In this document: positions 3,971-44,319 of the stretch, one piece after another | How positions within the stretch are numbered: the stretch's first letter is position 1 | Layout: every line of letters begins with the position of its first letter | Source of the DNA: Spirochaetes bacterium GWE1_32_154 | GTDB taxonomy: Bacteria; Spirochaetota; GWE2-31-10 | DNA: 64,000 nt | Reading direction: 5' to 3' | Assembly (NCBI GenBank): GCA_001829315.1 | Contig: MIAY01000014.1 | Span: forward strand, 60,801-124,800 | The notes under the pieces: model-generated | Seen by the model: the letters and a program-made list of their open reading frames with translations, nothing else | What the model was told of the DNA's origin: nothing | Database searches by the model: none | Position numbers and translations under genes: made by a program

Positions 3971-4887
3971 AAAAAAAATATAATACCGAAAATTGAAATT
4001 ATATAACCGATATTTTTAAAATTTGTAAATTCTATGGTATTAAGAGTTTGTTTTTCAAGAGTATCAATAGTATCAAATGTTGTTTTTATTTCATTTGAAT
4101 TCCTCGCAAAGAAAAATTCACCGCTTGTTTGTTCTGCAATATTTTTTAATAAAGACATATCCAATTCTTCAGCAGTACCAATACCAATTGTGTATATTTT
4201 TATTGCAGATTTCTTTGCAATTTCTGTAGCTGTTTGAGGAGTTATTTCCCCTGAATTATTTTCACCATCAGTAATTAAAATTATTATTTTCGATTGATTT
4301 TCCAGGTTATCCTTTATACTTAATAAACGATTTACTCCACTTGCTAAACCTAATCCGATAGATGTAGAACCTTGTTTTTCCGGTGAAATAAAAATTCTAC
4401 TCAATATATCCTTCAGTAACTTATAATTATTAGTAGCCGGAGCTTTCAAAAATGAATTCGTAGAAAATGTTACTAAACCTAACCTGTCACCATGCCTTTT
4501 ATCAACAAAATTAGAAGTTACAAGTTTTGCAACATCCAATCGTGTATAATTACCATAATCTTTAGTTAACATACTCGGAGAAACATCTAAAACTAACATA
4601 ATATCAATCCCGCTATATTGAGTAATTTCTCTTTTAGCTCCGGATTGCGGTTTTGATAAACTGAAAGCAATTAAAAAAAGTCCAAGAAACAGTAGAACAA
4701 CTGATAAATAATGAAACAGTATCTTGTAAGAAAAATCACGCTTTAAACTACTGATTTCAGATAAAAAAACACCTTTTTTAATAACTCTACTGGAAATAAA
4801 ATAATAAGTCAGCAATAAAACCGGAAGTAACAGATATAATAATCCGGGTAAATTATCGAATCGTATTGAGCTCATTTTCCCTCTCAT
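3925..4887 (-). CDS. batA: BatA-like von Willebrand factor A domain membrane protein
   Basis: 320 aa; two N-terminal TM helices, VWA motif IMLVLDVSPSM, C-terminal TM; operon context. Confidence 0.7.
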   Translation of the reverse strand: MRGKMSSIRFDNLPGLLYLLLPVLLLTYYFISSRVIKKGVFLSEISSLKRDFSYKILFHYLSVVLLFLGLFLIAFSLSKPQSGAKREITQYSGIDIMLVLDVSPSMLTKDYGNYTRLDVAKLVTSNFVDKRHGDRLGLVTFSTNSFLKAPATNNYKLLKDILSRIFISPEKQGSTSIGLGLASGVNRLLSIKDNLENQSKIIILITDGENNSGEITPQTATEIAKKSAIKIYTIGIGTAEELDMSLLKNIAEQTSGEFFFARNSNEIKTTFDTIDTLEKQTLNTIEFTNFKNIGYIISIFGIIFFLCGLFLYTFIFRRLG

Positions 4888-5815
4888 TCTTTAATTTTAC
4901 AAAATTATTTATATTCACCCCAATATCTTTAATTGAATCAATATATTCATAAAACTGTTCTTTTGTAACCGATGCTTTAGCAAATTTTATCATATCCAGT
5001 TTATTTAAAATAGTACTTGTTTTGTATATTAATTCATTTTCAACTTGAGATTCACGTAAAGATGAAATAAGTTCTCTTGTTGTTTCTGAAACAGCATTAA
5101 ATGCTAATAATCGATATATAAACTCTTTAAATGTTTCTGATAAAACGGATATTTTCATCTCATATTCTTTTCTGTCTTCAGTTTCTAATCGTATTTTTTC
5201 AAGATCAGAAATAAATTTTTCAAATGAAGATATTGCATTAGAACTATCTTTATTTTTTTTACTCTTTATTAATCTTTTAATAATAAATTTATATACAATT
5301 AAAATAATAAATACGATTAATATGACAATAAAAATTAATAACAAAATATTTTCAAAATAAAATCTGAATTTATATATATCTTTATTGTTCTTTAATTCAA
5401 TTTTTTCAGGTTCTTTGATTTTTGAAAATGCGGTTTTCTCATCCTCAGTTAATACTGATTCGATTATAATTGTAAATTTCTTTGTTTCATATTCAATTAC
5501 AGTTCCACTTGATAATGAAACAGGAATTGTGAAAAATAAATTATCAAATGTACCGTCTTCAAAAATAGCACAAATATAAGTACACTGAATTGTATCATTT
5601 GATTGAACATAGGTTGAAGAAACAATCTCAAGAGGAGCTGTTACTTTCTGAATTTCTTTTAAAACAGAATATTTTTCTTGTACCGGTAAATTAAATGTAA
5701 CGGTAAATTTATCACCTATTTTTAAATTTGTCTGTGAAATATTGATATCAATTGAAGTATTAGAATAAATAAGAACATTTATAAAAATGAACAAAAAAAT
5801 AATTATATTTTTCAT
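4853..5815 (-). CDS. Hypothetical membrane protein of the MoxR/Bat operon (occupies the position usually held by a DUF4381-type protein)
   Basis: 320 aa ORF with signal peptide and one internal TM helix; overlaps both neighbours; family assignment is by position only. Confidence 0.5.
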   Translation of the reverse strand: MKNIIIFLFIFINVLIYSNTSIDINISQTNLKIGDKFTVTFNLPVQEKYSVLKEIQKVTAPLEIVSSTYVQSNDTIQCTYICAIFEDGTFDNLFFTIPVSLSSGTVIEYETKKFTIIIESVLTEDEKTAFSKIKEPEKIELKNNKDIYKFRFYFENILLLIFIVILIVFIILIVYKFIIKRLIKSKKNKDSSNAISSFEKFISDLEKIRLETEDRKEYEMKISVLSETFKEFIYRLLAFNAVSETTRELISSLRESQVENELIYKTSTILNKLDMIKFAKASVTKEQFYEYIDSIKDIGVNINNFVKLKNERENELNTIR

Positions 5816-6705
5816 TTTCGAATTTTTTTCCTTTTTTCAAAATATGAAATGATTGCTTTCTCAGTGTTTTCATTGGTATTAATAATAAGCGGTGTTATAT
5901 TATTTTTTTTAAATTCCTGCAAAATTGCTTCTCTTTTTTCAATTCTATTTCTTATCATTTTTTTATAGGATGCTGAGCTTGTGTCAATTAGCATTCTTTT
6001 ACCATTTTCATTGTCAATTGCATCAACTAATCCGACATTGATTTCTGAAAATTCAAATACATCATTAATTATAACTGGAATTAAGTCATGTTTTCTTGAT
6101 AAGATATACAATTTTGAGCTGTCTATCTCAGAAAAAAAATCAGAAAATAAAAAAATAACACCCTTTCGTTTCATTGTTTTCAGCGTAAAATCAAAAGCCC
6201 CATTAATATCAGTTAACAGCCCCTTTGGTTTGTAAAACAAAATATCTCTTATAAGACGCAATATTGAATTCTTATTTTTTGTAGGCGGAATATACTCTTC
6301 AATTTCATTTGTAAAAAAAACAGCACCGATTTTATCCTGATTAAATAAACCTGTAAATGATAAAATTGCTGCAGTTTCCAGAAGAATATCTTTTTTTAAT
6401 TTTAATCCTGAACCATATTTTAAAGAACCTGATAAATCAAGAAGCATAAGCACATTAAGTTCTCTTTCTTCCTTATATCTTTTTATATAAGGAACTCCAT
6501 GGCGTGCAGTAACATTCCAATCTATTTTTCTTACATCATCACCTGGAATATATTCTCTTACTTCCTGAAATTCAATTCCCTGTCCTTTAAAAACTGAAGA
6601 ATAACCGCCGGAAGAAACATCAGCAACAAGTACACCTGCTTTCAACTCTATTCTTTTAATTCTTTTTAAAAGCTCAGGGGGTATTTTGTCATTTTCATTT
6701 TTCAT
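5812..6705 (-). CDS. DUF58 family protein (MoxR-associated VWA-like)
   Basis: 297 aa; motifs VREYIPGDDVRKIDWNVTAR and LLDLSGSL typical of DUF58 proteins encoded next to MoxR ATPases. Confidence 0.75.
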   Translation of the reverse strand: MKNENDKIPPELLKRIKRIELKAGVLVADVSSGGYSSVFKGQGIEFQEVREYIPGDDVRKIDWNVTARHGVPYIKRYKEERELNVLMLLDLSGSLKYGSGLKLKKDILLETAAILSFTGLFNQDKIGAVFFTNEIEEYIPPTKNKNSILRLIRDILFYKPKGLLTDINGAFDFTLKTMKRKGVIFLFSDFFSEIDSSKLYILSRKHDLIPVIINDVFEFSEINVGLVDAIDNENGKRMLIDTSSASYKKMIRNRIEKREAILQEFKKNNITPLIINTNENTEKAIISYFEKRKKIRK

Positions 6706-7691
6706 TATGGAACCACTACCGAATTAAAAATTTGTTTAATAATATCTTCCGATGTAACACCCTCAGCTTCTGCTTCATAACTCAAAATTAATCGATGTCT
6801 TAAAACCATCAGGCTTACATTTTTTATATCATCTGCTGTTACAAAACCTCTTCCATTTAATATGGCAATCCCTTTTGCTGCTCTTGCCAGGAAAATACTG
6901 GCTCGCGGTGAAGCAGGATAATTAATTAAACTTTGTATTTTCAAACCATACTCAGAAGGATTTCTTGTTGAATCTACTATATCAACAATGTATGATTTTA
7001 TTCTATCACTTATGTAAACGTCATTTATCAAATTTGATAATTCAATTATTTTATTCTGATCGATAACCTGGTTTATTGAAATTTCTTTATTACTTATCAT
7101 TCTATCGAGTATTACTTTCTCTTCATCTTTTGTCGGATACGTTATTTTTATCTTCATCATAAATCTATCGATCTGAGCTTCAGGTAAATTATAAGTTCCT
7201 TCCTGATCAATAGGATTTTGTGTTGCCATAACAAGAAATGGAGAAGGTAAAGCATATGTAACATCACCCAAAGTGACCTTTTTCTCTTGCATAGACTCTA
7301 ATAAAGCTGATTGAACCTTTGCAGGGGCTCTGTTTATTTCATCAGCAAGTATAATATTGGCAAAAACTGGTCCTTTTTTAGGCTGAAAATCACCGGTTTT
7401 CTGATTATAAATTAATGTACCGATAATATCAGATGGCAGCAAGTCAGGAGTAAATTGTATTCTTTTAAAGTCTAATTTAACAGCTTTTGATAGAGTGCTT
7501 ACCGCTAATGTTTTTGCAAGACCGGGTACACCTTCGACAAGTATATGCCCACCGGTAATTAAACCGATTAATAAACCGTCCAGCATTTCATTTTGACCGA
7601 CAATAACTTTCTTTAACTCATTTTTTAAAGTTTCAATTAAAGGTAATTCCTTTTCTACTTTTGTTTGAATCTCTTGTACTTGTAAATCCAT
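6705..7691 (-). CDS. moxR: MoxR-family AAA+ ATPase
   Basis: 328 aa; Walker A GVPGLAKT, MoxR-type sensor motifs, typical length. Confidence 0.9.
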   Translation of the reverse strand: MDLQVQEIQTKVEKELPLIETLKNELKKVIVGQNEMLDGLLIGLITGGHILVEGVPGLAKTLAVSTLSKAVKLDFKRIQFTPDLLPSDIIGTLIYNQKTGDFQPKKGPVFANIILADEINRAPAKVQSALLESMQEKKVTLGDVTYALPSPFLVMATQNPIDQEGTYNLPEAQIDRFMMKIKITYPTKDEEKVILDRMISNKEISINQVIDQNKIIELSNLINDVYISDRIKSYIVDIVDSTRNPSEYGLKIQSLINYPASPRASIFLARAAKGIAILNGRGFVTADDIKNVSLMVLRHRLILSYEAEAEGVTSEDIIKQIFNSVVVP

Positions 7692-7927
7692 TTTTTAACA
7701 CCTGTTCATTAGTAAAATTAATTATTACAATAATACATTTACGTTGTATGGTAAATATATATTTCATAATATAACACTTTAAACTGTTGTTTTACGAAGT
7801 GCTTTTACATAACTTTTACACAGACACGTTAATACAAATCAAAAGAAGCATATGCAAAAATTTGATTTAAAAAATAAATCTTTTATCATTAATTTAAATT
7901 TATATTCAATAAATTGGATAATGTGAT

Positions 7928-8539
7928 ATGATTAAATCTCATAAAAAAATATTAACTGGAGTATTTAGTTTGACTTTAACCTCTTTTAGAAAAAATTTAA
8001 TATTAGATTTTTTATTAATTCTTTTATCATTTTTTATTTCGATTTTAGTATATAACGCTAATTCAGTACTTTTCGAAAAATCTATTTCAAAAAAAGTAAT
8101 AGACACTTTGATAAAAGACAGTTCAATACCCAATGTTCCGGGTAACATTATAGATATTGTATGGGTAACAAAAGATTTTGAAAACTGGTTACCTTATTTT
8201 TATAATACAAATAAATATAAAAATTCTACACTATTTAAAAGCATGCATCCTAATATTCATTCAAAAACAATTAAATCAATTACCATTAATAAAAATAATG
8301 TAATTTTTACTGTGTGGATTAACAAAAATTCAGCAAGTGTTATTTTTAAATACTTAATTATCCCTTTTTTACTTTTAATTCTATTTTTATTCATTGTTAA
8401 ATTATTCTTTACATGGACTCTACAATTACTTAATATCCATTCTTTACCAGTTGAAAACATAGAAGAAACTAATAGTGACGGGCGAAAACCGTATGATTTA
8501 ACAAATGATGAAATAGAAGGTTTAATAGGTCATAAATAA
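7928..8539 (+). CDS. Hypothetical membrane protein
   Basis: 203 aa ORF with two predicted TM helices, divergent from moxR operon; no recognisable domain. Confidence 0.4.
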   Translation: MIKSHKKILTGVFSLTLTSFRKNLILDFLLILLSFFISILVYNANSVLFEKSISKKVIDTLIKDSSIPNVPGNIIDIVWVTKDFENWLPYFYNTNKYKNSTLFKSMHPNIHSKTIKSITINKNNVIFTVWINKNSASVIFKYLIIPFLLLILFLFIVKLFFTWTLQLLNIHSLPVENIEETNSDGRKPYDLTNDEIEGLIGHK

Positions 8540-8548
8540 TTAAATTAT

Positions 8549-9286
8549 TTATTTGTGAAGAAAATCTAAAACATCTTGAGAATTATATGAGTATTTTTTT
8601 TGCCAGTCATTTTCTGAAACAAAATGACCATATTCTTTAAGCATTTGCAAATAATCAGTTCGTTCAATTGTAACAGCACCAAAACGCTCAAGGTTTGCAG
8701 TATACACCTGACAATCTATTAACTTATAACCGGCATTAAAAAGCATTGAAGCTAACGCTATAAAACCGACTTTTGATGCATCATCAACTAACGAAAACAT
8801 TGACTCACCACAGAATATTTTTCCGACTGCTACTCCATACAATCCTCCACATAATCTATCATTGCTCCAAACCTCTACAGAATGTGCATACCCGGATTTA
8901 TGCAATGCAGTATAATGCTTAATAATATCAGATGTAATCCATGTACCATTTTGAGAAGGTCTTGAAATGAAACTGCATTGTTCGATTACTTCTTTGAAAT
9001 TGGCATCTACCGTAACGGTAAAAATATTTTTCTTAATCGTTTTAAGCAGTGATTTACTGCAATGAAGGGAATCAGGAAACAAAACAAAACGCTCAAAGGG
9101 CGAATACCACTGAACAGGAGGATGTGAATACCAGGGAAATATCCCTTTAGAATATGCATCCAGGAGAATTTCTTTTGAAATTCTCCCCCCGACTGCTATG
9201 ATATCTGAAGAAATATTTTCAGGATAGGGTAATTGTTGAGTAAGAGAATCAAGAAAAAGAATATTATTATACGTGAATGTTGACAA
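8549..9286 (-). CDS. aat: Leucyl/phenylalanyl-tRNA--protein transferase
   Basis: 245 aa; motifs FPWYS, GGLYGVAVGKIFCGESMFS; immediately downstream of clpA as in many Gram-negatives. Confidence 0.85.
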   Translation of the reverse strand: MSTFTYNNILFLDSLTQQLPYPENISSDIIAVGGRISKEILLDAYSKGIFPWYSHPPVQWYSPFERFVLFPDSLHCSKSLLKTIKKNIFTVTVDANFKEVIEQCSFISRPSQNGTWITSDIIKHYTALHKSGYAHSVEVWSNDRLCGGLYGVAVGKIFCGESMFSLVDDASKVGFIALASMLFNAGYKLIDCQVYTANLERFGAVTIERTDYLQMLKEYGHFVSENDWQKKYSYNSQDVLDFLHK

Positions 9287-11500
9287 TTAACTGTTCTCCA
9301 AAACAATTTTATTATCAACAAGTTTTATTGTTATATTTTTAAGATTACTTTCAATTTCATTAAAAAGCACCAGATCAATTAATTTGTCTTTTATTTCATT
9401 TTGAAAAACCCGTGTTATTTCTCTTGCACCAAATTCATTTGAATACCCTTTATCAGCAATCCAATTAATTACTTCTTCTGTTAACAGAAGATTAAAATTT
9501 TTGTTTTCAAGCGACTTCTGAAATAATGAAATTTCTTTATGAACAATTTTTAATATCTCATCTTTATGTAAAGCATTAAATTTAACAATACTGTCAATTC
9601 TATTTCTAAACTCAGGCGTAAATACATCCTTTAAAGCATCATTTATAGCATAATCTTTACTTTTCTCAGAACTACCGAAACCTATAAATGCCTTTCCAAT
9701 ATCTTTAGCACCGGCATTTGATGTCATAATAATTATGACATTTCTAAAATCAGCCTTTCGCCCCTGATTATCGGTAACAGTTGCATAATCCATGATTTGT
9801 AATAATGTATTAAAAATATCTTTATGCGCTTTTTCAATTTCATCAAGCAGTAGAACCGAATGCGGATTTTTTCTTATCTGATCGGTCAGTAACCCACCAT
9901 CTTCGTATCCGACATACCCTGGGGGTGACCCAATTAAACGGGAAACAGTATGTTTTTCCTGATATTCACTCATATCAAATCGAAGTAAAGGAACACCAAG
10001 ATGAACAGATAATTGTTTTGCCAGTTCTGTTTTCCCCACCCCGGTCGGCCCTACAAATAATAATGATGCAATTGGTTTTGTCCCCTCTTTAAAACCTGCA
10101 CGGGACCTTTTTATAGCATGAACCATAGTTTCAATTGCCTCATTCTGCCCAAATAAAACCGATTGTAAATACGATGATAAATCTTTAAGCTTTAAGCGTT
10201 CATCATTACCCATTGTTTCAACCGGAATATTAGCTATTAAGGATATAACTTTTTCTATATCAGTTTTTGTAATATTTATTGTTGTATTATCTTTCTTCAA
10301 TAAATGTGTCAGAGCACCAGCTTCATCAAGTACGTCAATTGCTTTATCCGGTAATTTTCTTTCATTTATGTATTTGTATGATAACTCAACGCATGAGCGA
10401 ATCGCTTCATCATCATAAACTACTGAATGATGTTTTTCATACAATTCTTTAAGCCCGTACAGAATTTTTACTGCAGTCTCAATATCAGGTTCTTTAATTT
10501 CTATTTTTTGAAATCGCCGTGTTAATGCTCTATCCTTTTCAAAATATTTATTATACTCTTCATACGTCGTAGAACCAATACATCTGATATCGCCTGAAGA
10601 AAGAAATGGTTTTAAAATATTTGAAGCATCCATTGATCCACCCGATACGGCACCAGCTCCTACAACAGTATGAATCTCATCAATAAACAGGATAACTTTT
10701 CCTGCCTTAACCGCTTCATTTAGAACAGATTTTAATCGTTCTTCAAAGTCCCCCCTGTATTTTGTTCCCGCTAATAAAGATCCCATATCAACAGAATATA
10801 TTGTAAACCCCTTAATTATATCAGGCACTTCGTTTTTTGAAATTAAATCAGCCAAACCATTTGCTATTGCAGTTTTACCGACCCCCGGATCACCTACAAG
10901 AATCGGATTGTTTTTTGATCTCCGGCATAACACATGAATTACTCTTTGTATTACATCTTCACGACCGATTAGCGGATCAAACGTATGTAAAGCAGCTTGC
11001 GCAGTTAAATCAACACAAAATTTTTGCAAAGCTGTTTCTTTTTTCTTATTTTCAGAACTATTATCTTGAGTCTCAATATTTCCAATGGCCAGTTCGCGTA
11101 ATAAATCCAATAAAGCAACACCATTTTTCTTCAAATAATATGATGCATACGATTGTTCAAGATTATATATTGAAACAAGATAATCGCTCACTTCAATACT
11201 ATTTTTAGCGGCTGACAAACAATGTGCATACGCATCATTAAGTGCTAACACAACATCATTACTTTGAATTGGTTCTTTTTTTCTGTTATAAAGTTTCGGG
11301 ATTTTACTATCAAAAAAATCCTGCAGTGCTGATACAATACCTTCACAATCTCCGCCAATTGAAAGAATAATTTCCTGATAATTTTTAATTTGAAGGATCA
11401 GAAATAAAATATGCTCAGGGGTTACATACTCATGCTTATTATCCTGGGCAAATTTGTAAGCTTTATCAAAAATATCATTAAGCTCTTGTTGAATTTTCAT
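9287..11500 (-). CDS. clpA: ATP-dependent Clp protease ATP-binding subunit ClpA
   Basis: 737 aa; two AAA modules ([10 protein letters not shown] and GPTGVGKTE), ClpA-type N-domain; follows clpS. Confidence 0.92.
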
Positions 11501-13701: not shown

Positions 13702-15042
13702 GTGGTAAATAATATGGAACTAAAATTTCAAACAGAAAAGAAAGAAAACTCACAGATTCAATTATCAGTAACAATTGATAAAAATGAAATTGCATCACAA
13801 TACAAAGAATTACTTAATGAAACACAAAAAAACATTGTTATGAATGGTTTTAGAAAAGGAAAAGTTCCTTTATCAATTATAGAAACAAAATATAAAAAAG
13901 CATTACTTGCCGAAGTTGCCCATAAATTAGTTGATAAAAGTTATCAGGAAATTTTTGAGAAACTAGAAGATAAACCATTGGCAACAAGTACTCCGACACT
14001 TGATGATATAGAAGAAATTAAACTGGATAGTGATTTTACTTATAAAATTACATACGAAACATATCCAACAATTACTTTTGGTGAATATAAAAATATTGAA
14101 ATTGAAAAAGATGAAATTACAGCTTCAGAAAAAGACATTTCAGAAGAAATAAATAGGTATTTATCAGAATTTTCATCAATCGAAACAAAAGATTCTCAAA
14201 TTGAAGACGGTGATATAGCATTAATTGAATACAAAGTATTCGAAGGTGATACTGAAATAGAATCAAAAGACAATGAGTATGTTCATATTGGTAAAGATTA
14301 TGATAAATATAAAATCGGTAAAGAATTAATCGGTTTAAAAAGCAGTGATACTAAAGACTTCAAAAAGAAATTCACTGATAAAGATGGAGACGCATTTGCC
14401 GGAAAAACATATAAATTCAAAGCAACAGTTAAAGAAGTAAAAGTTGAAAAAAAACCGGAACTAACTGACGAACTTGCTAAACAAATTGATAAAACTGTTG
14501 AAACTGCTGAAGCATTTAAAAATAAAGTTAAAGAAAATCTTGAACACTATGCAGCTGATACAACAAAACAAAAAGCAATTGATAAAATAATGGATAAAAT
14601 TATTAAAACATTCAAAGGGGTTGTACCTCAATCAATGATCGACGCACAAATCGACTCATATTATAAAGAGCTTTTACAAAAAGTTGGCGGTGATGAAAAG
14701 CGTGCTAATAATATGCTTAGTCTTGAGGGGTTAAATAAAGAAACATACAGAGAAAAAATGAAAGAAAAAGCAACTAATGCTATTCAACGTTCATTAATAC
14801 TCAATGAAATTATAAAAAAAGAAAGCATAAAAGCTACAGAAGAAGATATAAAAGCTCATATTAATAAATTTGCAAAATTTTATAATCTCAATACAAATGA
14901 TCTTTTTGATAATTACAAAAAGAACAATCAATTAGCAATGTTTGAAGGCGAAGTAGAAATAGAAAAAGCTATTGATATTATTTATAATTCACTTAAAGCT
15001 AAAAAAATTAACAAACTTTCACTAAAAGAGCTTGACGATTAA
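13702..15042 (+). CDS. tig: Trigger factor
   Basis: 446 aa; N-terminal ribosome-binding GFRKGKVP motif, FKBP-like middle domain; conserved tig-clpP-clpX-lon order. Confidence 0.92.
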   Translation: MVNNMELKFQTEKKENSQIQLSVTIDKNEIASQYKELLNETQKNIVMNGFRKGKVPLSIIETKYKKALLAEVAHKLVDKSYQEIFEKLEDKPLATSTPTLDDIEEIKLDSDFTYKITYETYPTITFGEYKNIEIEKDEITASEKDISEEINRYLSEFSSIETKDSQIEDGDIALIEYKVFEGDTEIESKDNEYVHIGKDYDKYKIGKELIGLKSSDTKDFKKKFTDKDGDAFAGKTYKFKATVKEVKVEKKPELTDELAKQIDKTVETAEAFKNKVKENLEHYAADTTKQKAIDKIMDKIIKTFKGVVPQSMIDAQIDSYYKELLQKVGGDEKRANNMLSLEGLNKETYREKMKEKATNAIQRSLILNEIIKKESIKATEEDIKAHINKFAKFYNLNTNDLFDNYKKNNQLAMFEGEVEIEKAIDIIYNSLKAKKINKLSLKELDD

Positions 15043-15081
15043 CAACTTAAATACGTATATTATACATTCAAGGGGAAATAA

Positions 15082-15696
15082 ATGATAATTACACCGTATA
15101 TGGGACATGGAATACTTCCGAGAATAGTAGAAAGAACAAGTCGCGGTGAAGAAGTCTGGGATATTTATTCAAGACTCATTAAGGATAATATTATATTTAT
15201 TGGTGGTGAAATCAATGATTTTGAAGCTGATACTGTAATGGCAACTTTACTATTTATGGAAAGTCAGGATCCAGATAAAGATATATCGCTTTATATAAAT
15301 TCTCCCGGTGGCTCTGTTACAGCAGGACTTGCAATATTTGATACAATAAAAAATATCAAACCTGATGTTTCAACTATTTGTATTGGACAAGCTGCAAGTG
15401 CAGCAGCATTAATACTATCAAGTGGAACGAAAGGTAAAAGATTTGCATTGCCTCATTCACGAATAATGCTTCATCAACCCTGGGGTGGCGCAGGTGGTCA
15501 GGCTTCAGATATCATTATTCAGGCTAATGAAATAAATAGAATAAAAAAACAAATAAACACTATTTTAGCCGAAAACTGTAGTAAACCTTTAGAACAAATA
15601 GAGCAGGATACACAAAGAGATTTCTTTTTATCCCCTACTGAAGCATTAGAATATGGATTAATTGATAAAATTTTGAAGAGAGAAGATAAAAAATGA
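15082..15696 (+). CDS. clpP: ATP-dependent Clp protease proteolytic subunit ClpP
   Basis: 204 aa; catalytic Ser motif GQAASAAA and MLHQPWGG. Confidence 0.95.
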
Positions 15697-16964
15697 GCAA
15701 ATATAAAATGAATTTTGAAGACATCTGTTCGTTCTGTGGTAGAAATTTAGAAGAGTATAATCTAAAATTCGTACGGGGTTTTAATTGCAGTATTTGTTCT
15801 GATTGTATAAAAAAAGGATACACGGCAGTTAAATCAACTGAAACAGATGGTGTACTCAATTCATTAGAAGATAGCAAACTTCCTTCTCCAAAAGAGATTA
15901 AAGGTTTTCTTGACCAATATGTTATCGGTCAGGAAGATGCAAAAAAATATATGTCTGTAGCCGTATACAATCATTATAAAAGAATTGTATACGGTTTAGA
16001 TTTATCTGATTCAGAACATTATAAAGATCTTGAAGTAGAAAAATCAAATATTCTTTTAATAGGACCCACCGGTTCAGGTAAAACACTGATTGCAAAATCA
16101 TTAGCAAAGAAATTAAACGTTCCATTTGCAATCGCTGATGCAACAACGTTAACTGAAGCCGGTTATGTTGGCGATGATGTTGAAAATATTTTACTTAAGT
16201 TAATACAGGCAGCTGATTACAATATACCTCTTGCCGAAAAAGGCATCATATACATTGATGAAATTGATAAAATCGCAAAAAAAGGCGAAAATATGTCTAT
16301 TACAAGAGACGTATCAGGTGAAGGTGTCCAACAGGCCTTATTAAAAATTATTGAAGGAACTGAAGCCTCAGTACCTCCGCAAGGCGGACGAAAGCACCCT
16401 AATCAGGAATTGCTTCAAATTAATACAAAAAATATTTTATTTATTTGTGGCGGTGCATTTGTTGGTCTTGATAAAATATTAGAAGCTCGAATTAATGTTA
16501 AACCTATGGGTTTTGGTGCAGAAATAGTAAAATCAAAAGACAAAAATATGGTTTCACTTTTTAAAAATCTTCATCCTGAAGATTTAGTGAAATTTGGTTT
16601 AATCCCTGAGTTTGTCGGACGACTTCCAATAATTACAACATTAAACCCGTTAACTGAAGATGATCTTGTTAAAATAATTAAAGAACCAAAAAATTCAATT
16701 CTAAAACAATTTGAATGGGCTTTCTCAATTGAAAATGTTTCATTTGAATTTACTGAAGAAGCTATACGTGCAATGGCGATTAAAGCAATCAAGCAAAACA
16801 CCGGTGCTCGAGGTTTACGATCCATTATGGAAAAATTAATGCTTGATGCAATGTATGAAGTCCCGTCAGTTGATGATATCGAAAAAATTATTGTTGACGA
16901 AGAAGTCATTAATCAAGATATCCCTGTAAAGATTATAAAAAAAGGTGCATCTAAAACAGCATGA
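15693..16964 (+). CDS. clpX: ATP-dependent Clp protease ATP-binding subunit ClpX
   Basis: 423 aa; N-terminal C4 zinc finger (CSFCGR...CSICSDC), Walker A GPTGSGKT. Confidence 0.95.
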
Positions 16965-19345
16965 AAATATTAAAAAAAGACAATAGTTTCTCATATAATA
17001 CTCTTCCAATAATACCATTGAGAGAGATGGTTATTTTTCCCAATGTCATAAAAACATTTTATGTCGGTAGAAAGGAATCAATTACAGGAATTGAAAAAGC
17101 AATTGAAAATTTTGACAGCAAAGTTTTTTTAGTTACTCAAAAGAGTTCAAATATTAATAATCCGGGAATAAATGATTTATATGATATCGGTGTTATCGCT
17201 AATATTATCGAAGTTAAACCTACACCTGATAAAAAGGTTTTAAAACTTGTAATAAAAGGTATAAAACCTTGCAAACTTACAGAGATTATCGATTGTAATG
17301 ATTTCAACACAGCAAATATTGAATATCTTGGAGATGCAATAATTGAAGATCCCAAAAAAGTAGAAACTTTATTTTCTTTAATCAATAAAGAATTTAAAAA
17401 ATTTGTTGAGCAATCAAGATTTCAACCTGATATAGTACGAAATATTGAATCATCTAAAAATCATATTGATTTTTTCAATAACATAATGCAGTATTTAACT
17501 GTAAATATTGAAACTCAAATTGAAATACTTCGGGATAACAGGATCGACACTTATTTTTCGAAACTCGCTGAACTAATTTATGCTAATATTGAAAATGTCC
17601 AACTTGAAAAAAAAATAACCATGGAAGTTCGTAAAAAGATGGAAAAAAATCAAAAAGATTTTTTCCTTTATGAACAAATGAAAGAAATACAAAAAGAACT
17701 CGGTAATTCTCCTGAGGAGAATGAATTTTATAATATTGATGAATTTATAAAAAAACTTGATTCAATGGGTATTCCCGCTGAAATAAAAGAAAGAATTGTA
17801 AAAGAACAAAAGCGACTAATGAAAATGCCTCCAATATCACAGGAATCAGGTATAATAAAAAATTATATTGATACACTTCTTGAATTGCCATGGAGTATAA
17901 ATAGTGAAGATAATAAAGATTTAAATAAAGCAAAAGAGATCCTTGACTCGAAACATTATTCTTTAACAAAAGTAAAAAGTAGAATTTTAGAGTTTCTTGC
18001 AGTCAGACAATTAAATCCAAATACAAAAGGTCCAATACTTTGTTTTATAGGTCCTCCGGGAACCGGAAAAACAAGTCTTTCAAAATCTGTCGCAGATGCA
18101 ATTAATAGAGAATTCCTTCGTATTTCCTTAGGCGGAGTTCGCGATGAAGCAGAAATTAGAGGACATAGAAGAACGTATTTAGGTGCTCTACCCGGAAAAA
18201 TTATACAATCGATGAAAAAAGTTAAGACACTTAATCCGGTATTCCTTCTTGATGAAATTGACAAAATGAGTTCTGACTTTCGTGGTGACCCAGCATCAGC
18301 ACTTCTTGAAGTATTAGACCCTGAGCAAAATCAACAATTTGTTGATCATTTCCTTGAGGTTCCCTATGATTTATCAGCTGTTATGTTTATTTGTACAGCT
18401 AATTCAGTACAAGGAATTCCATACCCCCTACTCGATCGAATGGAACTAATATATATAAACAGTTATTCTGATGAAGAAAAAATAAAAATTGTACGAAATT
18501 TTATTATCCCAAAAGAAAAAATAGAAAATGGAATAGGTAATGTTGAATTAGCTATATCCCAAGCAGCTTTAAAAGAGATAATAAGAAATTATACTATGGA
18601 ATCAGGTGTGCGATCACTTCAAAGACAAATTGCTTCAATATGCAGAAAAACGGCAAAAGAAATCGTTTTAAATAACACACATACTGAAAAAATGACTATT
18701 TCAACAAAAAATCTTTCAAAATTCCTTGGTAAAAAGAAATACCTTGAACCTTCAATTGATGATTTTTTAGACATTGGGGTTGCTCATGGTCTGGCATGGT
18801 CCGAATTAGGCGGTGCATTATTACCAATTGAAATAGTATTATACCCCGGTAAAGGCGGAATTATATTAACGGGTAAACTTGGTGAAGTTATGAAAGAATC
18901 TGCTCAAACAGCTTTTTCTTACATTAAATCAAAAAGTCATTTATTTGCAATTAAATATCCTGACTTTAGTAAAGAATATGATTTACATATTCATTTTCCT
19001 GAAGGTGCCACACCAAAAGACGGCCCTTCCGGAGGTATAGCAATAACCTGCGGTATTTTATCAGCATTAACAAAAACCCCGATTAAGACAACTGTAGCGA
19101 TGACCGGAGAGGTTACACTTACCGGCAGAGTATTAGCAATTGGCGGATTACGGGAAAAATCACTTGCTGCACTACGGCATGGAAAAAAAGAAGTTGTTGT
19201 CCCTTTTGCAAATACGAAAGATTTACAGGATTTACCAGGTAATGTAAAAAGTAAAATTGAATTTAAAACGGTAAAAAGAGTAGAAGATTTATTTGGTATT
19301 GTTTTTGACAGTTCAATATATTTAGAAAATGAAAACAACAATTAA
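16961..19345 (+). CDS. lon: ATP-dependent protease Lon
   Basis: 794 aa; LON N-domain, Walker [10 protein letters not shown], protease domain with PKDGPSGG. Confidence 0.95.
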
Positions 19346-22216: not shown

Positions 22217-23197
22217 TTGAAAGCATTAGCATTATTTTCAGGAGGACTTGACAGTGCCCTTGCTGTAAAACTTATTCAATCACAAGGGATTGAAGTTATA
22301 CCACTAAATTTTGTATCGCATTTTTTTGGTGGTGCTAATGAAAGAGCTTCTAAAATGGCACAACAATTAGCTGCTGATATTCAATATATTGATTTTAAAC
22401 AAGAACATCTTGATATTGTAAAAAACCCGCCTCATGGTTATGGTGGTTACATGAACCCATGTATAGATTGTCATGCACTAATGATAAAAACAGCAGTTAA
22501 TCTTTTACCTCAATATAATGCTTCATTTGTTATTACCGGTGAAGTACTTGGTCAAAGACCGATGTCACAAACATCAAGGTCAATACGATTAATAAATAAA
22601 TTAGCAGGTGATACTGAATTAATAGTACGCCCCTTATCAGGTAAACTGATGAATGAAACTCTTCCGGAAAAAAACAAATGGATTGATAGAAATAAGCTTC
22701 TTGATATATCAGGCAGAAGTCGGACAAGACAGATTGCTTTAGCTATTGAATATGGGATAGTTGAATATCCGACTCCGGCCGGTGGCTGTTTATTAACGGT
22801 TGAAGGGTATTCAAATAGATTACGGTCTATTAAAAAAGACAATCAGATGAATAATGAGGATTTGTTTGAAATAATTAAAACATCGAGGTTTTTCAGACTT
22901 GATGAGGGTAAATATGTCATTGTTAGCAGAAATGAAGAAGAAAATACAATTCTTGACAGCTTTGAAAATAAAGTTGATTATTTTATCAGACCGGCGATTG
23001 ATACTTTTGGCCCCCATATAGCAATTACAGGAAAAAATTTCACCGATAATGATTTTGAGCTAATTTATCGAATTTTTTCACGATATTCAAAAGGAAAAGG
23101 AACAACACCGGTAGACTTTACTATTAATAATACACTAACTCATAGAGGTATTGGAACAATGACCGATGCAGAATTTGACAAATATATTATACGCTAA
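22217..23197 (+). CDS. PP-loop ATP pyrophosphatase, ThiI-like thiolation domain without a THUMP domain
   Basis: 326 aa; SGGLDS PP-loop, ITGEVLGQRPMSQT motif resembling the ThiI C-terminal domain; no THUMP-like N-terminus. Confidence 0.6.
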   Translation: MKALALFSGGLDSALAVKLIQSQGIEVIPLNFVSHFFGGANERASKMAQQLAADIQYIDFKQEHLDIVKNPPHGYGGYMNPCIDCHALMIKTAVNLLPQYNASFVITGEVLGQRPMSQTSRSIRLINKLAGDTELIVRPLSGKLMNETLPEKNKWIDRNKLLDISGRSRTRQIALAIEYGIVEYPTPAGGCLLTVEGYSNRLRSIKKDNQMNNEDLFEIIKTSRFFRLDEGKYVIVSRNEEENTILDSFENKVDYFIRPAIDTFGPHIAITGKNFTDNDFELIYRIFSRYSKGKGTTPVDFTINNTLTHRGIGTMTDAEFDKYIIR

Positions 23198-23224
23198 AAG
23201 GTTTGTCGTAATGACAAACCTTTT
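23196..23224. terminator. Bidirectional intrinsic terminator hairpin between convergent genes
   Basis: Perfect inverted repeat AAAAGGTTTGTC-gtaat-GACAAACCTTTT, A/T-flanked on both sides. Confidence 0.7.
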
Positions 23225-23242
23225 AGCAAAACGATAATCAAT

Positions 23243-24550
23243 TCAGGTAAACATAAAATATCTGATATAAAAATAGATCGTTGCAACAAATAAATTAATA
23301 ACTGTTGTAATCCCACCAATTTTAGTAAACTCAATAAATGATATATTATAACCTGATTTTTTTGCAATACCTGCAGAAACAACATTAGCAGATGCACCTA
23401 TAAGTGTTCCATTTCCACCGATACAGGCACCTACTGACAATGCCCACCAAACAGGCTCCATTTCCTGAAATGGTATATTATTTCCTACTTCTTTTAGAAT
23501 AGGTATCATAGTAGCAACATAGGGAATATTATCTATAAATGCAGAGAAAAAGCCGGATGCCCAAAGAATTATATTAGTTGTAAAAAAGATATTGCCTTTA
23601 GTTGCATCGATCATATATTCTGCGATTTTTTTTATAACGCCAACCTGAACAAGACCATCTACTAAAATAAATAGCCCGATAAAGAAAAAAATTGTCCCCC
23701 ATTCCACTTCTTTATAAAATTCCTCAGCAATTTCCTCAGATTTTTCATTTTTCGGGAAAACGCTTAATAACATTAATAATGAAGCCCCTGATAATGCAAT
23801 AATTGAAGCATCAAGATGTACTGTATCATGCAAAATAAAACCTGAAATAACCAATGCTAAAACGATTAAAGATTTAATTAACAATGGAAAATCTTTAATA
23901 GCCTTATTTTCATTAAAATCCATAATCCGGGCTTTTTTCTCCTGGGTTACTATAAGTTGCTTTTTATATTTTAATAGGACAACAAATAAAGTAACAATCA
24001 TCATGATAATAACTATTAAAGATTGATTTGTAATAAAATCATTAAAGCTTAATCCTATAGCACTTCCAATCATAATATTGGGAGGATCGCCTATAAGTGT
24101 TGCTGTTCCACCAATATTTGACGCGATAGCCTGAGAAATAATAAATGGAATTGGTGACAAACCCAATTCTACAGCAATTAATATTGTCACCGGAGTCAGT
24201 ATTAAAACTGTTGTGACATTATCAAGAAAAGCAGAAAATAAACCTGTAATAATAAATAACATTATTATTATCTTAACAGGATCTCCTTTTGCAATTTTTG
24301 AAGCTTTAATAGCAACATATTGAAATAAACCCGATCTTTTCGTAATTCCTACAATTATCATCATACTAATTAAAAGGAAAATTACGTTCCAATCTATAAC
24401 ATTAAATACATTTTCTTTATTAATAACACCTAATATTATTACAAGTGCAGAGCCTACTAATACAGCTATTGTTTTATTTATGTATTCAGTTGTAATAAAT
24501 ACATATACAACAGCAAAAATTGCTATTGCAAAAATCATATGAAAATTCAT
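23243..24550 (-). CDS. Anion/ion permease of the ArsB/NhaD/CitMHS superfamily
   Basis: 435 aa polytopic membrane protein with duplicated hydrophobic halves typical of this transporter superfamily. Confidence 0.6.
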   Translation of the reverse strand: MNFHMIFAIAIFAVVYVFITTEYINKTIAVLVGSALVIILGVINKENVFNVIDWNVIFLLISMMIIVGITKRSGLFQYVAIKASKIAKGDPVKIIIMLFIITGLFSAFLDNVTTVLILTPVTILIAVELGLSPIPFIISQAIASNIGGTATLIGDPPNIMIGSAIGLSFNDFITNQSLIVIIMMIVTLFVVLLKYKKQLIVTQEKKARIMDFNENKAIKDFPLLIKSLIVLALVISGFILHDTVHLDASIIALSGASLLMLLSVFPKNEKSEEIAEEFYKEVEWGTIFFFIGLFILVDGLVQVGVIKKIAEYMIDATKGNIFFTTNIILWASGFFSAFIDNIPYVATMIPILKEVGNNIPFQEMEPVWWALSVGACIGGNGTLIGASANVVSAGIAKKSGYNISFIEFTKIGGITTVINLFVATIYFYIRYFMFT

Positions 24551-24552
24551 AA

Positions 24553-25452
24553 CTATCCCCTTAAAATCTTTTTTAATATGTCCATATAACTGATGACACC
24601 AACAATTTTTTTATCTTTGACAACCGGAATTTGTCTTCTTTTATGTTGCGTCATTTCAAATGTAGCCTCAATAATTGAAGCCTCGGGAGCTAATTGGACA
24701 AGAGGTTTATTCATAATTTTCTTTATTTGAATCGTATCTTCATTCTCAAGCAGTTTATCAAAAGGGTCTAATGTTGATAAGAAACTTAAATTATCCAACA
24801 TCATCGCATAATTGGGAATACCTTCTTTTAATAGATCAAGCGTTGTTACTTCCCCGATAAATTCATCTTTTTCGTCAACTACAGGAATATAACTGATATT
24901 GTTTTTATAAAAAAGGTCTGAAAGCGTTTTTAAAGTATCACTTGGCTTTAAAGTAATGACATTTTTCGTCATTATATCATTAACTGTAGACCCCTTAGTC
25001 AATAAAAACCCGGCCTTTTCAATATTGCTAATAAAATGCCGGGGGTCTTTACTCTTCAAAATAGTTTCAAACAAACTCTCATTACTACTTATTTGAGCAA
25101 ATGCTGATAATATTTTTAAATATAGATTAGAAGTTGTTTTACCAATTAAAAATAATACAACCATTTTTACTGATATACCTTCCTGAATAAATTCCTCTTC
25201 AGGAATATAAATCGAAACAATAATATCATTAAAATTTTCTAATCTGCCATGTGGAATCCAAACACCAGTTGGTAATACAGTTCCACCGAGTGATTCTCTT
25301 TCTTCTATAGTATTAATAACCTTTGGAGAATCAATTTTAAAATCATAGTTTCTTTCAAATTGTCTTATTAAAAAAGAAATTATTTCTTCTTTATTCTTCA
25401 AATTTCCATTAATTACAATGTAATCTTCATTTAATATACTTGATAATTTCAT
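24553..25452 (-). CDS. Regulatory protein with PTS EIIA(Ntr)-type domain fused to a CBS domain pair
   Basis: 299 aa; N-terminal EIIA-2-like region with conserved His in a VWIPHGR context, followed by a CBS-pair-like C-terminal half; 2 bp from the permease gene. Confidence 0.55.
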   Translation of the reverse strand: MKLSSILNEDYIVINGNLKNKEEIISFLIRQFERNYDFKIDSPKVINTIEERESLGGTVLPTGVWIPHGRLENFNDIIVSIYIPEEEFIQEGISVKMVVLFLIGKTTSNLYLKILSAFAQISSNESLFETILKSKDPRHFISNIEKAGFLLTKGSTVNDIMTKNVITLKPSDTLKTLSDLFYKNNISYIPVVDEKDEFIGEVTTLDLLKEGIPNYAMMLDNLSFLSTLDPFDKLLENEDTIQIKKIMNKPLVQLAPEASIIEATFEMTQHKRRQIPVVKDKKIVGVISYMDILKKILRG

Positions 25453-25500
25453 ATATCCACCTTTAAATTTTTAAAATTCAGAATTATGATATATATACCA

Positions 25501-25812
25501 CTATGGAAATGAAAGAACAAAAAGAAGTTTTTTTAATATATATTTATAAAATAATTGATTATAAATAAAAATACGATCAAATTTTATTATATAATCATTA
25601 AAAAAGTCAGAAAATAAAAAAATTATAAGTAAATTTTTATCAAACTTAGTTGTATCATTTTCATTACATGTCATTAAATTAATCTCATAATCTTCATTAT
25701 AAAATAATTGGTTCTTTGTATTTATTCCACACGATTGAAGAAAGGTTAATAATACTAACATTATAACTATAATTTTATTTACCATTTTATAATTATACAA
25801 AAAAAAATTCAC
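25501..25812 (-). CDS. Hypothetical small lipoprotein
   Basis: 103 aa ORF; signal peptide ending in LQSCG lipobox-like sequence. Confidence 0.35.
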   Translation of the reverse strand: MNFFLYNYKMVNKIIVIMLVLLTFLQSCGINTKNQLFYNEDYEINLMTCNENDTTKFDKNLLIIFLFSDFFNDYIIKFDRIFIYNQLFYKYILKKLLFVLSFP

Positions 25813-25888
25813 AAATGCATTTTCTTTTACATTTATATTGATATTTTACTCTATAGAGTTTATTTTAATGTATTAGTAAGGAATCAAA

Positions 25889-26098
25889 ATGAAAGAATTA
25901 AAATGGAGAAAATGCCCTCTATGTGGTGCATGGAGTTTCTACATAGATATTCCTGGTAATGTAATTATTACTTTTAGAATAACAAATACTGGAGAAATTA
26001 CATTTACCTGTCATGATAGAACATATCCAATAACTGATCAAACTCGCATTCATTGTTTAAGTTGCTCATGGTCAGGAACAATTGACGATTTGGATTAA
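25889..26098 (+). CDS. Small zinc-ribbon-like protein (69 aa)
   Basis: Cys pairs CPLCG and CLSCS plus CHD; located 70 bp upstream of mnmG on the same strand. Confidence 0.45.
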   Translation: MKELKWRKCPLCGAWSFYIDIPGNVIITFRITNTGEITFTCHDRTYPITDQTRIHCLSCSWSGTIDDLD

Positions 26099-26166
26099 TA
26101 ATATTTTACTAATTTTCTATTATATGATAAAACCGCAATAGTAACATACAAGGAAGGTTTTTTTCA

Positions 26167-28038
26167 ATGATACATAGAGATTACGACATTATAATAGTAG
26201 GTGGTGGGCATGCAGGTTGTGAAGCTGCATATATAGCATCAAAAAGAGGATATAAAACCATTCTAATAACCCAGAATCCTGATACAATTGCAAAAATGAG
26301 TTGTAACCCATCAATTGGCGGAATCGGGAAAGGACACCTTGTAAGAGAATTAGATGCATTAGGCGGTATAATGGCTAAAACAATAGACCGTTCAATGATT
26401 CAATTCAGAATGTTAAATACTAAAAAAGGACCTGCTGTTCAAGCAATGCGTTCACAAGCTGATAAACTTGATTATCATGTCGCAATGAAAAAAACTCTTG
26501 AAAACAGTAAAGATCTTGATATATTTATGGATACTGTTGTGGACTTAAAAATAGAAAACAACGCAATTATTGGTGTCATAACAGAGCGGGGAAATACAAT
26601 TTCTGCTAAAGCTGTAGTATTAACCACCGGAACATTTATGGAAGGAAAAATACACATCGGACAATATAACAGTATGAATGGAAGAATTGGAGAATTAGCA
26701 GCATTAGGTTTATCTGCTAATCTTCGAAAGATCGGATTTGATGTCGGTAGATTAAAAACAGGAACCCCTGCACGAGTTACCAAAAGAAGTATAGATTTTT
26801 CAATACTTGAAAAACAGGATGGTGACCCGATGCTATTTCGTTTTGCAAATTTTGATGACACTCCAATAGACCGGCCAAATGTGCCTTGTTATGTCACTTA
26901 TACAAATGAAAAAACGCATTCAATTCTTCGTGATAATTTTGAACGCTCTCCTTTATTCTCAGGACGTATAAAAGGTGTCGGCCCCCGTTACTGCCCTTCT
27001 ATAGAAGATAAAGTAAAGAAATTCCCGGATAGAGAAAGACATCAGGTTTTTATAGAACCGGAAGGTTTGTATACGGATGAACTTTATTTAAACGGGTTAT
27101 CAACATCAATGCCGGAAGATGTGCAATACGCATTCTTAAAATCTATTGCGGGGTTTGAAAATATTGAGATAGTCAGACCGGCATACGCTGTAGAATATGA
27201 CTATCTTAATCCGATTCAATTAAAACCATCACTTGAAACAAAACTTATTTCAGGGTTATTTTTAGCTGGTCAAACCAATGGCACTTCAGGATATGAAGAA
27301 GCTGCAGCTCAAGGTACTATTGCAGGGATTAATGCATGTCTATTCGTAGAAGGTTCAGAACCATTAATACTGGGAAGAGATGAAGCGTATTTAGGTGTTC
27401 TTATTGACGACCTGGTAACTCAAGGGACTACTGAACCATATAGAATGTTTACATCGCGTGCTGAATATCGTTTACGACTGCGACAGGATAATTGTGATTT
27501 ACGACTCACTCAATATGCAATTGAAAGAGGTTTTATTTCCGGGGTTGAAAAAGATAGATTTGAAAATCGAATCATTGAAATATCCACAATAAAAGACCTT
27601 CTTAATAAAACAAAACTAAAAAAAGATCAGATTGAATTAATCAATCTGCAAGGAATAAAAAGCGGTTCAAAATGGGAAGATTATATAAAAAACCCGAATA
27701 CTGATTTTCAAGATGCTTTTAGTTTATTTATTAAAGATTTTTCAAATATCACTCAATCCTCATTTAATACTGCTGCTATAGAAATAAAATATGAAGGGTA
27801 TGTGGCAAAACAGGAAAAAGATGTTCAAAAAACAAAAAAACAAACAGAACGAATCATCCCGCTTGATATAAACTATGATGATATCCGTGGCATTTCAAAT
27901 GAAAGTCGGGATAAGTTCAAATCAGTAAAACCTGTGAATATAGGTCAGGCATCACGAATCAGCGGAATAACACCGGCAGACATTACAATTTTAAGTATTT
28001 ATATATACACCCAAAATCAGAAGAAAAATAAATTATAA
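26167..28038 (+). CDS. mnmG: tRNA uridine 5-carboxymethylaminomethyl modification enzyme MnmG (GidA)
   Basis: 623 aa; FAD-binding [13 protein letters not shown]-terminus, full-length GidA architecture. Confidence 0.95.
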
Positions 28039-44074: not shown

Positions 44075-44149
44075 CGGGATGTGGCCTAGTCCGGTTATGG
44101 CGTCTGGCTTGGGACCAGAAGATCGGGGGTTCGAATCCCTCCATCCCGA
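44075..44149 (+). tRNA. tRNA-Pro (anticodon TGG)
   Basis: Hand-folded cloverleaf: acceptor CGGGATG/CATCCCG, anticodon loop CTTGGGA, T-loop TTCGAAT. Confidence 0.85.
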
Positions 44150-44153
44150 ATTT

Positions 44154-44227: not shown

Positions 44228-44240
44228 TTCTCAATTTTAT

Positions 44241-44313: not shown

Positions 44314-44319
44314 CAACAC

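Follow-up and report, generated by a model that had tools for sequence, protein, structure and literature searches.

A PTS EIIA–CBS protein encoded with an ArsB-fold permease in Spirochaetota and other phyla: a candidate two-input transporter subunit

Here we show that a 299-aa protein, in which a type-2 EIIA domain of the phosphoenolpyruvate (PEP)-dependent phosphotransferase system (PTS) is fused to a pair of CBS domains, forms a dedicated, translationally coupled two-gene module with the 435-aa permease encoded directly downstream of it. The module lies in a 64,000-nucleotide stretch of DNA from Spirochaetes bacterium GWE1_32_154 (Spirochaetota; GenBank assembly GCA_001829315.1, contig MIAY01000014.1, positions 60,801 to 124,800 of the forward strand), which is called the window throughout and to which all positions refer unless another locus is named. 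Because it is adjacent to the permease in nearly every relative examined, across several phyla, the EIIA–CBS protein (hereafter, the regulator) looks like a built-in regulator of that permease. The reading that we favour, with some reserve, is that it is a dedicated regulatory subunit gating the permease according to PTS phosphorylation state and to an adenosyl ligand bound by the CBS pair; the phosphorylation itself, the identity of the ligand, contact between the two proteins, the direction of control and the substrate are points that we infer.

A conserved, translationally coupled gene pair

The two genes, their junction and the region ahead of them are all on the reverse strand:
24553..25452, reverse strand: regulator gene (open reading frame (ORF) call), encoding the 299-aa PTS_EIIA_2 plus CBS-pair protein
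23243..24550, reverse strand: permease gene (ORF call), encoding a 435-aa ion-transporter-superfamily permease of CitMHS/ArsB fold
24556..24562, reverse strand: Shine-Dalgarno-like AAGGGGA for the permease, within the final codons of the regulator (L-R-G)
25453..25888, reverse strand: upstream region with a presumed promoter and a small lipoprotein-like ORF (from the sequence; not conserved)

A preliminary description of this DNA had placed a 299-aa EIIA-2/CBS-pair protein here and a permease gene 2 bp downstream of it. ORF and Pfam domain calls agree with the former, and the latter is borne out by the Pfam assignment of the permease to the CitMHS/ArsB fold and by the junction itself, which reads AAGGGGA-TAG-TT-ATG, with two nucleotides between the regulator stop codon and the permease start codon. 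The G+C content of the window is ~28%.

The pairing is conserved when approached from either gene. Scanning one genome for each GTDB species with an alignment of 12 regulator sequences yielded 30 loci in which a relative is present, full-length or cut; a permease homologue stands immediately downstream in 23 of the 26 evaluable loci, and the four further loci end at a contig edge. Two distant regulators, P0067 (30% identity) and P0061 (from Cloacimonas), are paired with a permease as well. From the permease side, six homologues (55-60% identity) were picked blind to their neighbours, including those of Spirochaeta lutea and of a metagenome-assembled genome (MAG) labelled ‘Deltaproteobacteria’, and all six have an EIIA_2+CBS gene directly upstream. 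Co-occurrence of the two genes, suggested earlier as a check on the pair, is therefore found both ways (23/26 and 6/6) and across phyla.

All-against-all clustering of the neighbouring ORFs in 41 loci revealed no conserved third partner gene: only the regulator and the permease are common to all, the remaining clusters being antisense shadow ORFs or synteny restricted to Fusobacterium. In 25 of 35 loci the two genes are separated by -4 to +15 nt, in two by 22-28 nt and in the eight Fusobacterium loci by 43-63 nt, and in the tight loci the agg/gag-rich codons for a conserved C-terminal L-R-G supply the Shine-Dalgarno sequence of the permease. The two proteins also co-diverge, their identity matrices correlating at r=0.88 (a value reached in 0 of 2000 permutations) and at r=0.71 without Fusobacterium; the regulators diverge faster, with a mean pairwise identity of 38% vs 53% for the permeases.

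Some loci carry more than one permease. In Fusobacterium loci L019, L021, L025 and L028 (~6690-10280) the order is permease-regulator-permease on the same strand, with two permease paralogues, and at L018:8926-11461 two permease paralogues follow the regulator in tandem.

The EIIA–CBS regulator

The following elements, all on the reverse strand, were located within the regulator:
25015..25437, reverse strand: EIIA type-2 domain, residues 6-146 (Pfam and structure matches)
25249..25251, reverse strand: codon for the predicted phospho-acceptor His68 (motif W-I-P-H-G-R; translation and PtsN alignment)
24823..24984, reverse strand: CBS domain 1, residues 157-210 (Pfam), containing the motif G-E-V-T-T-L-D
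24742..24822, reverse strand: conserved CBS1-CBS2 linker, residues 211-237, with the motif G-I-P-N-Y-A-x-M-x-x-N-L-S-F-L
24562..24726, reverse strand: CBS domain 2, residues ~243-297 (Pfam), containing the motif G-V-I-S-Y-M-D

Both halves of the protein are recognised by Pfam well above threshold: PTS_EIIA_2 (PF00359) at 69.2 bits (cut-off 27), with profile positions 2-143 of 144 covered, and two CBS domains (PF00571) at 98.1 bits (cut-off 24). In an AlphaFold2 (AF2) model (predicted local distance difference test score (pLDDT) 91; predicted template modelling score (pTM) 0.56), the EIIA domain has as its best matches among solved structures the PtsN/EIIA(Ntr) chains 3urr, 2a0j, 1a6j and 4gqx (target-normalised template modelling (TM) score 0.80-0.86, root-mean-square deviation (rmsd) 2.1-2.3), and the C-terminal half superposes on the CBS pairs of 4esy, AcuB, CBSX2 and MJ0100; no single chain with both EIIA and CBS domains was found in this comparison of the model with solved structures. 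The sequence is 100% identical to a hypothetical protein of the groundwater MAG ‘Spirochaetes bacterium GWF1_31_7’ (GCA_001829335.1, contig MIBA01000047.1).

The earlier designation ‘EIIA(Ntr)-like’ holds at the level of fold and superfamily and fails for PtsN in the strict sense. The PtsN models TIGR01419 and NF008145 give 27.2 and 28.5 bits, far below their cut-offs of 138.7 and 221, the second catalytic histidine is a tyrosine, and the rpoN-hpf-ptsN-rapZ-npr linkage is missing, none of these genes having been found in the window; the regulator is thereby ruled out as a PtsN orthologue. Assignment as a fructose/mannitol-type EIIA of a sugar PTS was likewise rejected. The best NCBIfam match of the EIIA domain, the fructose-type IIA domain TIGR00848, reaches 49.9 bits, under its cut-off of 103.5, and neither EIIB nor EIIC occurs in the window or in related loci.

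Proteins of this kind form a sizeable family. A word-indexed search returned 69 clusters with the same EIIA_2+CBS architecture and a length of ~297-305 aa, and at E <= 1e-30 another 1.84 billion-representative search, exhaustive and made with a profile, recovered 466 proteins, the best 150 of which are nearly all full-length (~300 aa); family size, counted in clusters at 50% identity, is ~466. The hosts belong to Spirochaetota, Brevinematales, Fusobacterium, WOR-3, Marinimicrobia, Cloacimonadota and Dependentiae, with one ‘Deltaproteobacteria’ MAG, and public records label the regulator ‘hypothetical protein’, ‘CBS domain-containing protein’ or ‘PTS sugar transporter subunit IIA’. An apparent archaeal host, represented by a 2650-bp ‘Candidatus Pacearchaeota archaeon’ contig (L014), was rejected; from end to end it matches a Brevinematales locus (L015:7039-9685) at 89.5% DNA identity, and it is probably a mis-binned bacterial contig.

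Residue conservation was computed over an alignment of 204 full-length family members. Arg52, His68 and Tyr111 of the regulator align with Arg57, His73 and His120 of Escherichia coli PtsN, of which His73 is the phosphorylation site. His68, whose counterpart had been singled out for a conservation check at the outset, is kept in 200 of the 204 members (98%) and is, level with Gly285 (98%), the most conserved position of all, followed by Pro213 (97%), Pro67 (96%), Arg70, Phe224 and Arg52 (94% each) and Tyr215 (92%). Conservation of His68 in a canonical (I/V)-P-H-(G/A)-R loop, together with that of Arg52, is the pattern expected of a live phospho-acceptor. In sugar-specific EIIA proteins a second histidine is needed for onward phosphotransfer, as described in the mannitol EIIA literature. 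In the regulator family the residue aligned with PtsN His120 is Tyr in 79% of members, Met in 10% and His in 5 of the 204. Because this second catalytic histidine is replaced by tyrosine and no EIIB or EIIC accompanies the pair, the EIIA domain would be a terminal phospho-acceptor rather than a donor.

In the CBS half, the ribose-contacting motif G-h-h-S/T-x-x-D is present in both domains of the window protein. Gly200 of CBS1 is 97% conserved and Asp206 59%, or 82% when Glu (24%) is counted with Asp; the corresponding positions of CBS2, Gly285 and Asp291, are conserved at 98% and 77%. The CBS1-CBS2 linker is the best-conserved non-catalytic stretch of the protein, with Pro213, Tyr215 and Phe224 among its 14 most conserved positions, and we infer that it is a candidate docking surface.

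The wider PTS context is sparse. Pfam scans of all window ORFs of at least 150 aa detected no PTS family besides the regulator, and tblastn searches of the window and 38 related loci, for which EI, HPr, NPr, Crr and RapZ of E. coli served as queries, matched only EIIA_2 domains. The absence of sugar-PTS permease components from the window, as originally claimed, is upheld by both searches, and the regulatory rather than sugar-transporting role proposed with it agrees with the lack of EIIB/EIIC nearby and with the tyrosine at the second catalytic position in 79% of members.

The regulator is preceded, at a distance of 48 nt and on the same strand, by a small ORF (25501-25812, reverse strand) that public gene calls give as 94-103 aa. 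The N-terminus of the encoded protein resembles a lipoprotein signal (…LLTFLQSCG…); the ORF has no Pfam match, and clustering of neighbours gave no counterpart in related loci.

The permease and the rest of the window

The permease belongs to the broad Pfam family CitMHS (PF03600; 317 bits, cut-off 31.9), with further matches to ArsB (75 bits) and Na_sulph_symp (72 bits) and a weaker one to CitMHS_2. Searched against solved structures, its sequence finds VcINDY at E 3e-18 over the N-terminal half only and ArsB at E 1.5e-15 over the full length. The AF2 model (pLDDT 91, pTM 0.90) is closest to ArsB (10tp_A; TM-score 0.87-0.89, rmsd 2.6 over 433 columns, 20% identity), with VcINDY and other DASS transporters as the next-best folds, and the fold corresponds to an elevator-type secondary transporter, probably dimeric. 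The permease shares 23% of its residues with E. coli ArsB and 24% with YbiR.

None of the curated functional models fits. The permease scores under the cut-offs of those for ArsB (NF011980, 130 vs 457; TIGR00935, 112 vs 415; NF033877, 112 vs 760), MamN (NF040989, 192 vs 500) and NhaB (NF007093, 29 vs 640), under that for DASS (TIGR00785, 114 vs 198.6), and, though a member of the broad PF03600, under that for the citrate subfamily citMHS (TIGR00784, 23.9 vs 259.7). For NhaD, part of the superfamily name under which the permease was initially described, library scans gave no specific model match, no comparison with an NhaD reference sequence having been made; among homologues the name occurs solely in the source annotation ‘ArsB/NhaD family transporter’.

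Permeases partnered with a regulator share distinctive sequence features. Two motifs are invariant, S-A-x-L-D-N-V-T-T (residues 106-114) and D340-N341-I-P, and occupy two pseudo-symmetric positions; at the hairpin tips the partnered permeases have L-D-N-V and I-D-N-I, as compared with A-N-D and M-N-N in ArsB and T-N-D and S-N-V in YbiR. A short central loop, A-R-I-M-x-F-D-E (from A207), is nearly invariant. The window permease also carries a 7-residue insertion, V-F-P-K-N-E-K (residues 264-270, 23741-23761), which is a gap in almost all of 143 aligned homologues and around which pLDDT falls to 66-72.

Our best guess for the substrate is an inorganic ion, transported in a Na+-, K+- or H+-coupled manner. 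We lean weakly in this direction because no conserved metabolic neighbour or riboswitch accompanies the pair, because both tip motifs contain an acidic residue, and because the occasional neighbours include cation/proton antiporters (CPA), V-ATPase genes, CorA and Amt. Rfam scans of 18 related loci gave zero matches and hence no riboswitch clue to the substrate; in the window, Rfam at the gathering threshold detected tRNAs only, and an E-value scan of 25300-26300 returned nothing credible.

Several neighbouring genes in related loci bear domains of the same kinds. Beside the pair, L045:8236-10431 encodes a 731-aa Na_H_Exchanger-PTS_EIIA_2 fusion; at L049:1-2076 a stand-alone EIIA_2 precedes a 557-aa Na_H_Exchanger-CBS protein; and L050:1072-2024 has separate genes for a CBS protein of 144 aa and an EIIA_2 protein of 150 aa. 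At L008:12368-16811 (reverse strand), 2 kb from the pair, genes for a 151-aa stand-alone PtsN-like EIIA_2 and for one UspA-like protein end a V-type ATPase operon, ORFs of which have translations resembling the A, B and D subunits, and at L051:1-1559 genes for V-ATPase I and c subunits stand just upstream of the pair.

Downstream of the module in the window, the permease gene converges on a ThiI-like gene, with a strong hairpin between them:
23193..23227, no strand assigned: hairpin with a perfect 15-bp stem and a 5-nt loop, where the permease and ThiI-like genes converge

The free energy of the hairpin is -22.9 kcal/mol, with z-scores of -8.1 for one strand and -7.9 for the other. A consensus terminator scan did not call it, because its U tract is only 4 long, though the stem is strong; this sole U run, 4 U, lies inside the stem. 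The preliminary description had announced a strong bidirectional terminator here: the strong hairpin is present on both strands, and its status as a terminator is weakened by the missing U tail and the negative scan, which leaves a probable two-way terminator that is not of the canonical U-tailed type. The convergent gene (22217-23197, forward strand), which shares the hairpin, encodes a 326-aa protein with a ThiI/PP-loop ATPase-like N-terminal half and a C-terminal NFACT-R_2 RNA-binding domain.

Elsewhere in the window, a 69-aa Cys-rich, zinc-ribbon-like ORF (CPLCG…CHDR…CLSCSW; 25889-26098, forward strand), called in public records and located just upstream of mnmG, has no Pfam or NCBIfam match. 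A Bat/MoxR-type operon (531-7691, reverse strand) encodes, in this order, a MoxR AAA_3 ATPase, a DUF58 protein, an ORF without a match, VWA and VWA-TPR proteins and BatD. There are two housekeeping clusters, one with trigger factor, ClpP, a ClpX-like ATPase and Lon (13702-19345, forward strand) and the other with MreB, MreC, MreD, PBP2 and RodA (56528-62215, reverse strand), and eight tRNA genes are packed inside 720 bp (44075-44794, forward strand).

Proposed gating of the permease, alternatives and implications

In the mechanism that we propose, the 299-aa protein would be the cytoplasmic regulatory subunit of the 435-aa ArsB-fold permease. His68, together with Arg52 and Arg70, would take a phosphoryl group from HPr~P or NPr~P, phosphorylation of the EIIA domain would report on the PEP-dependent phosphorelay, i.e. 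on carbon and energy status, and the domain would keep the phosphoryl group as a terminal acceptor instead of donating it. The CBS pair would bind an adenosyl ligand, most likely ATP, ADP or AMP, with c-di-AMP or S-adenosylmethionine (SAM) as further possibilities. Depending on the combined state of the two sensors, the regulator would or would not dock on the permease from the cytoplasmic side and inhibit or activate it, and a plausible contact is that between the CBS-linker motif of the regulator and the central A-R-I-M-x-F-D-E loop of the permease. Precedents exist for both inputs and lend support to such gating: unphosphorylated E. coli PtsN inhibits the CPA1 antiporter YcgO, to whose cytoplasmic region it binds (PMC11808508), TrkA and KdpD are further targets of PtsN (PMC13104625), and CBS pairs gate MgtE, CorB and OpuC (PMC10710835). 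EI, HPr and HPrK are present in Fusobacterium and in spirochaetes, Borrelia among them (PMC2405797). Two-input gating is also supported by the occurrence of the same domains on the cation/proton antiporters that neighbour the pair at L045 and L049, and by the stand-alone CBS and EIIA_2 genes at L050.

Several observations count against this proposal. The mutual orientation of the regulator domains is undefined, since pTM of the AF2 model is only 0.56, and the ribose-binding Asp of CBS1 is conserved in merely 59% of the 204 members. Three regulators (L012, L020 and L022) have no adjacent permease. The best 120 matches to a concatenated query included no regulator-permease fusion, only stand-alone permeases of 408-438 aa, and because no natural fusion was found the permease family offers no Rosetta-stone support for physical contact. 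A search limited to the window and related loci turned up no gene for EI, HPr or NPr, and Dependentiae, WOR-3 and Marinimicrobia are not, to our knowledge, known to carry a PTS. Finally, no riboswitch or conserved metabolic neighbour in related loci points to a substrate.

The alternative that best survives, although we regard it as unlikely, is that the EIIA-fold domain is not phosphorylated at all and serves as a module for binding a protein or ligand, the conserved His and Arg holding a small anionic molecule or having a structural role; sensing would then fall to the CBS pair alone, and the permease would still be under control. The lack of a phosphoryl donor gene in the window and in ~45 loci speaks for it, as do the presence of the family in lineages of small or poorly known PTS content, the loss of the second catalytic histidine and the fusion of EIIA_2 domains to non-PTS antiporters. 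It is opposed by the near-invariance of His68 (98%) within a canonical (I/V)-P-H-(G/A)-R loop, by the accompanying Arg equivalent to PtsN Arg57, and by the fact that PtsN is itself found without an adjacent EI in many genomes.

Less likely again is a pleiotropic, PtsN-like signalling protein with which the permease gene only happens to share an operon, the permease being one target among many or no direct target. In E. coli, PtsN interacts with numerous proteins, TrkA, KdpD and YcgO among them (PMC13104625), and both the three regulators that lack an adjacent permease and the single regulators that accompany two permease paralogues in Fusobacterium and at L018 are compatible with such a role; however, the pairing in 6/6 and 23/26 loci, the near-zero gaps and the co-divergence of the two proteins are the signature of an obligate partnership, and PtsN itself is linked to rpoN/hpf/rapZ and not to a target. 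A new PTS transport unit, in which the EIIA–CBS protein passes phosphate on and the permease acts as an EIIC-like group translocator, could appeal to TIGR00848 as the best NCBIfam match of the EIIA domain (49.9 bits), but that score is under the cut-off of 103.5, no locus contains an EIIB domain or a Cys/His acceptor partner, the histidine for onward transfer (PtsN His120 position) is a tyrosine and the permease has an ArsB/DASS rather than an EIIC fold, which makes this option highly improbable.

Gating of the permease by a dedicated EIIA–CBS subunit would resemble several known arrangements and differ from each of them. One is the control of TrkA, KdpD and the K+/H+ antiporter YcgO by PtsN, which has the same EIIA type-2 fold and His/Arg active site, likewise has no sugar permease as partner, and regulates a secondary ion transporter through phosphorylation-dependent contact (PMC11808508, PMC13104625), as is proposed here from the genes. 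The present regulator differs in being fused to CBS domains, in being encoded with its putative target instead of with rpoN/hpf/rapZ/npr, and in having Tyr in place of His120, and the target has an ArsB/CitMHS fold and not that of Trk or CPA1. MgtE, CorB/CorC, ClC and OpuCA share with the regulator a transporter-associated tandem CBS pair with the ribose-binding Asp motif and presumed adenosyl sensing (PMC10710835), but their CBS pair is fused to the transporter or ATPase, whereas here it resides in a separate soluble subunit together with a PTS domain. EIIA phosphorylation also switches non-PTS transporters in inducer exclusion by EIIA-Glc (LacY, MalK, MelB) and through the EIIA-like domain of LacS (PMC10710835); EIIA-Glc, in contrast, is of another fold and family (PF00358, not PF00359), acts globally, serves sugar transport as well and has no CBS pair. 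The Na_H_Exchanger-PTS_EIIA_2 and Na_H_Exchanger-CBS proteins place the same two regulatory domains on cation/proton antiporters, but these belong to the CPA superfamily and carry one domain each, in cis, and not a separate two-domain subunit. The ArsB arsenite/antimonite efflux permease shares its topology with the window permease over the full length of the latter (10tp_A); the window permease is, however, only 20-23% identical to it, lacks an arsR/arsC/arsA context and has other hairpin-tip motifs.

EIIA-type control of non-PTS transporters and gating by CBS domains are thus each well known. What is new is their combination: EIIA and CBS domains fused in one soluble subunit that is exclusive to one permease family, outside Proteobacteria and Firmicutes. 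Neither an EIIA_2+CBS protein nor this branch of permeases was described in any publication found by full-text searching, and a 2026 review of PTS-Ntr makes no mention of a CBS fusion. Most of what is known about the regulation of secondary transporters by PTS proteins comes from Proteobacteria and Firmicutes, where the EIIA regulators are global and have many targets. An EIIA domain hard-wired to one transporter and joined to a second sensor would offer a clean and probably tractable system for studying how phosphorylation and nucleotide signals are integrated in the gating of an elevator-type transporter, and cultured hosts are available in Spirochaeta lutea, Fusobacterium perfoetens and Fusobacterium sp. 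SB021. A testable function would at the same time be attached to the ~470 uncharacterised regulator clusters (at 50% identity) and to a large unannotated branch of ‘ArsB/NhaD family transporters’.

More speculatively, and at lower odds than the gating itself, the regulator may represent an unrecognised class of two-input subunit for permeases of the ion-transporter superfamily, one that reads the PTS phosphorelay together with a nucleotide signal, either a second messenger or energy charge (ATP/AMP or c-di-AMP), and thereby sets Na+/K+/H+ homeostasis. Were this true, the module would be a compact counterpart of the proteobacterial PtsN-TrkA/YcgO and the Firmicute c-di-AMP-Ktr/CpaA circuits combined, its network would extend to the Na+/H+ exchangers with EIIA_2 or CBS domains that are encoded nearby, and cation homeostasis would be set in this way in Spirochaetota, Fusobacteriota and several candidate phyla.

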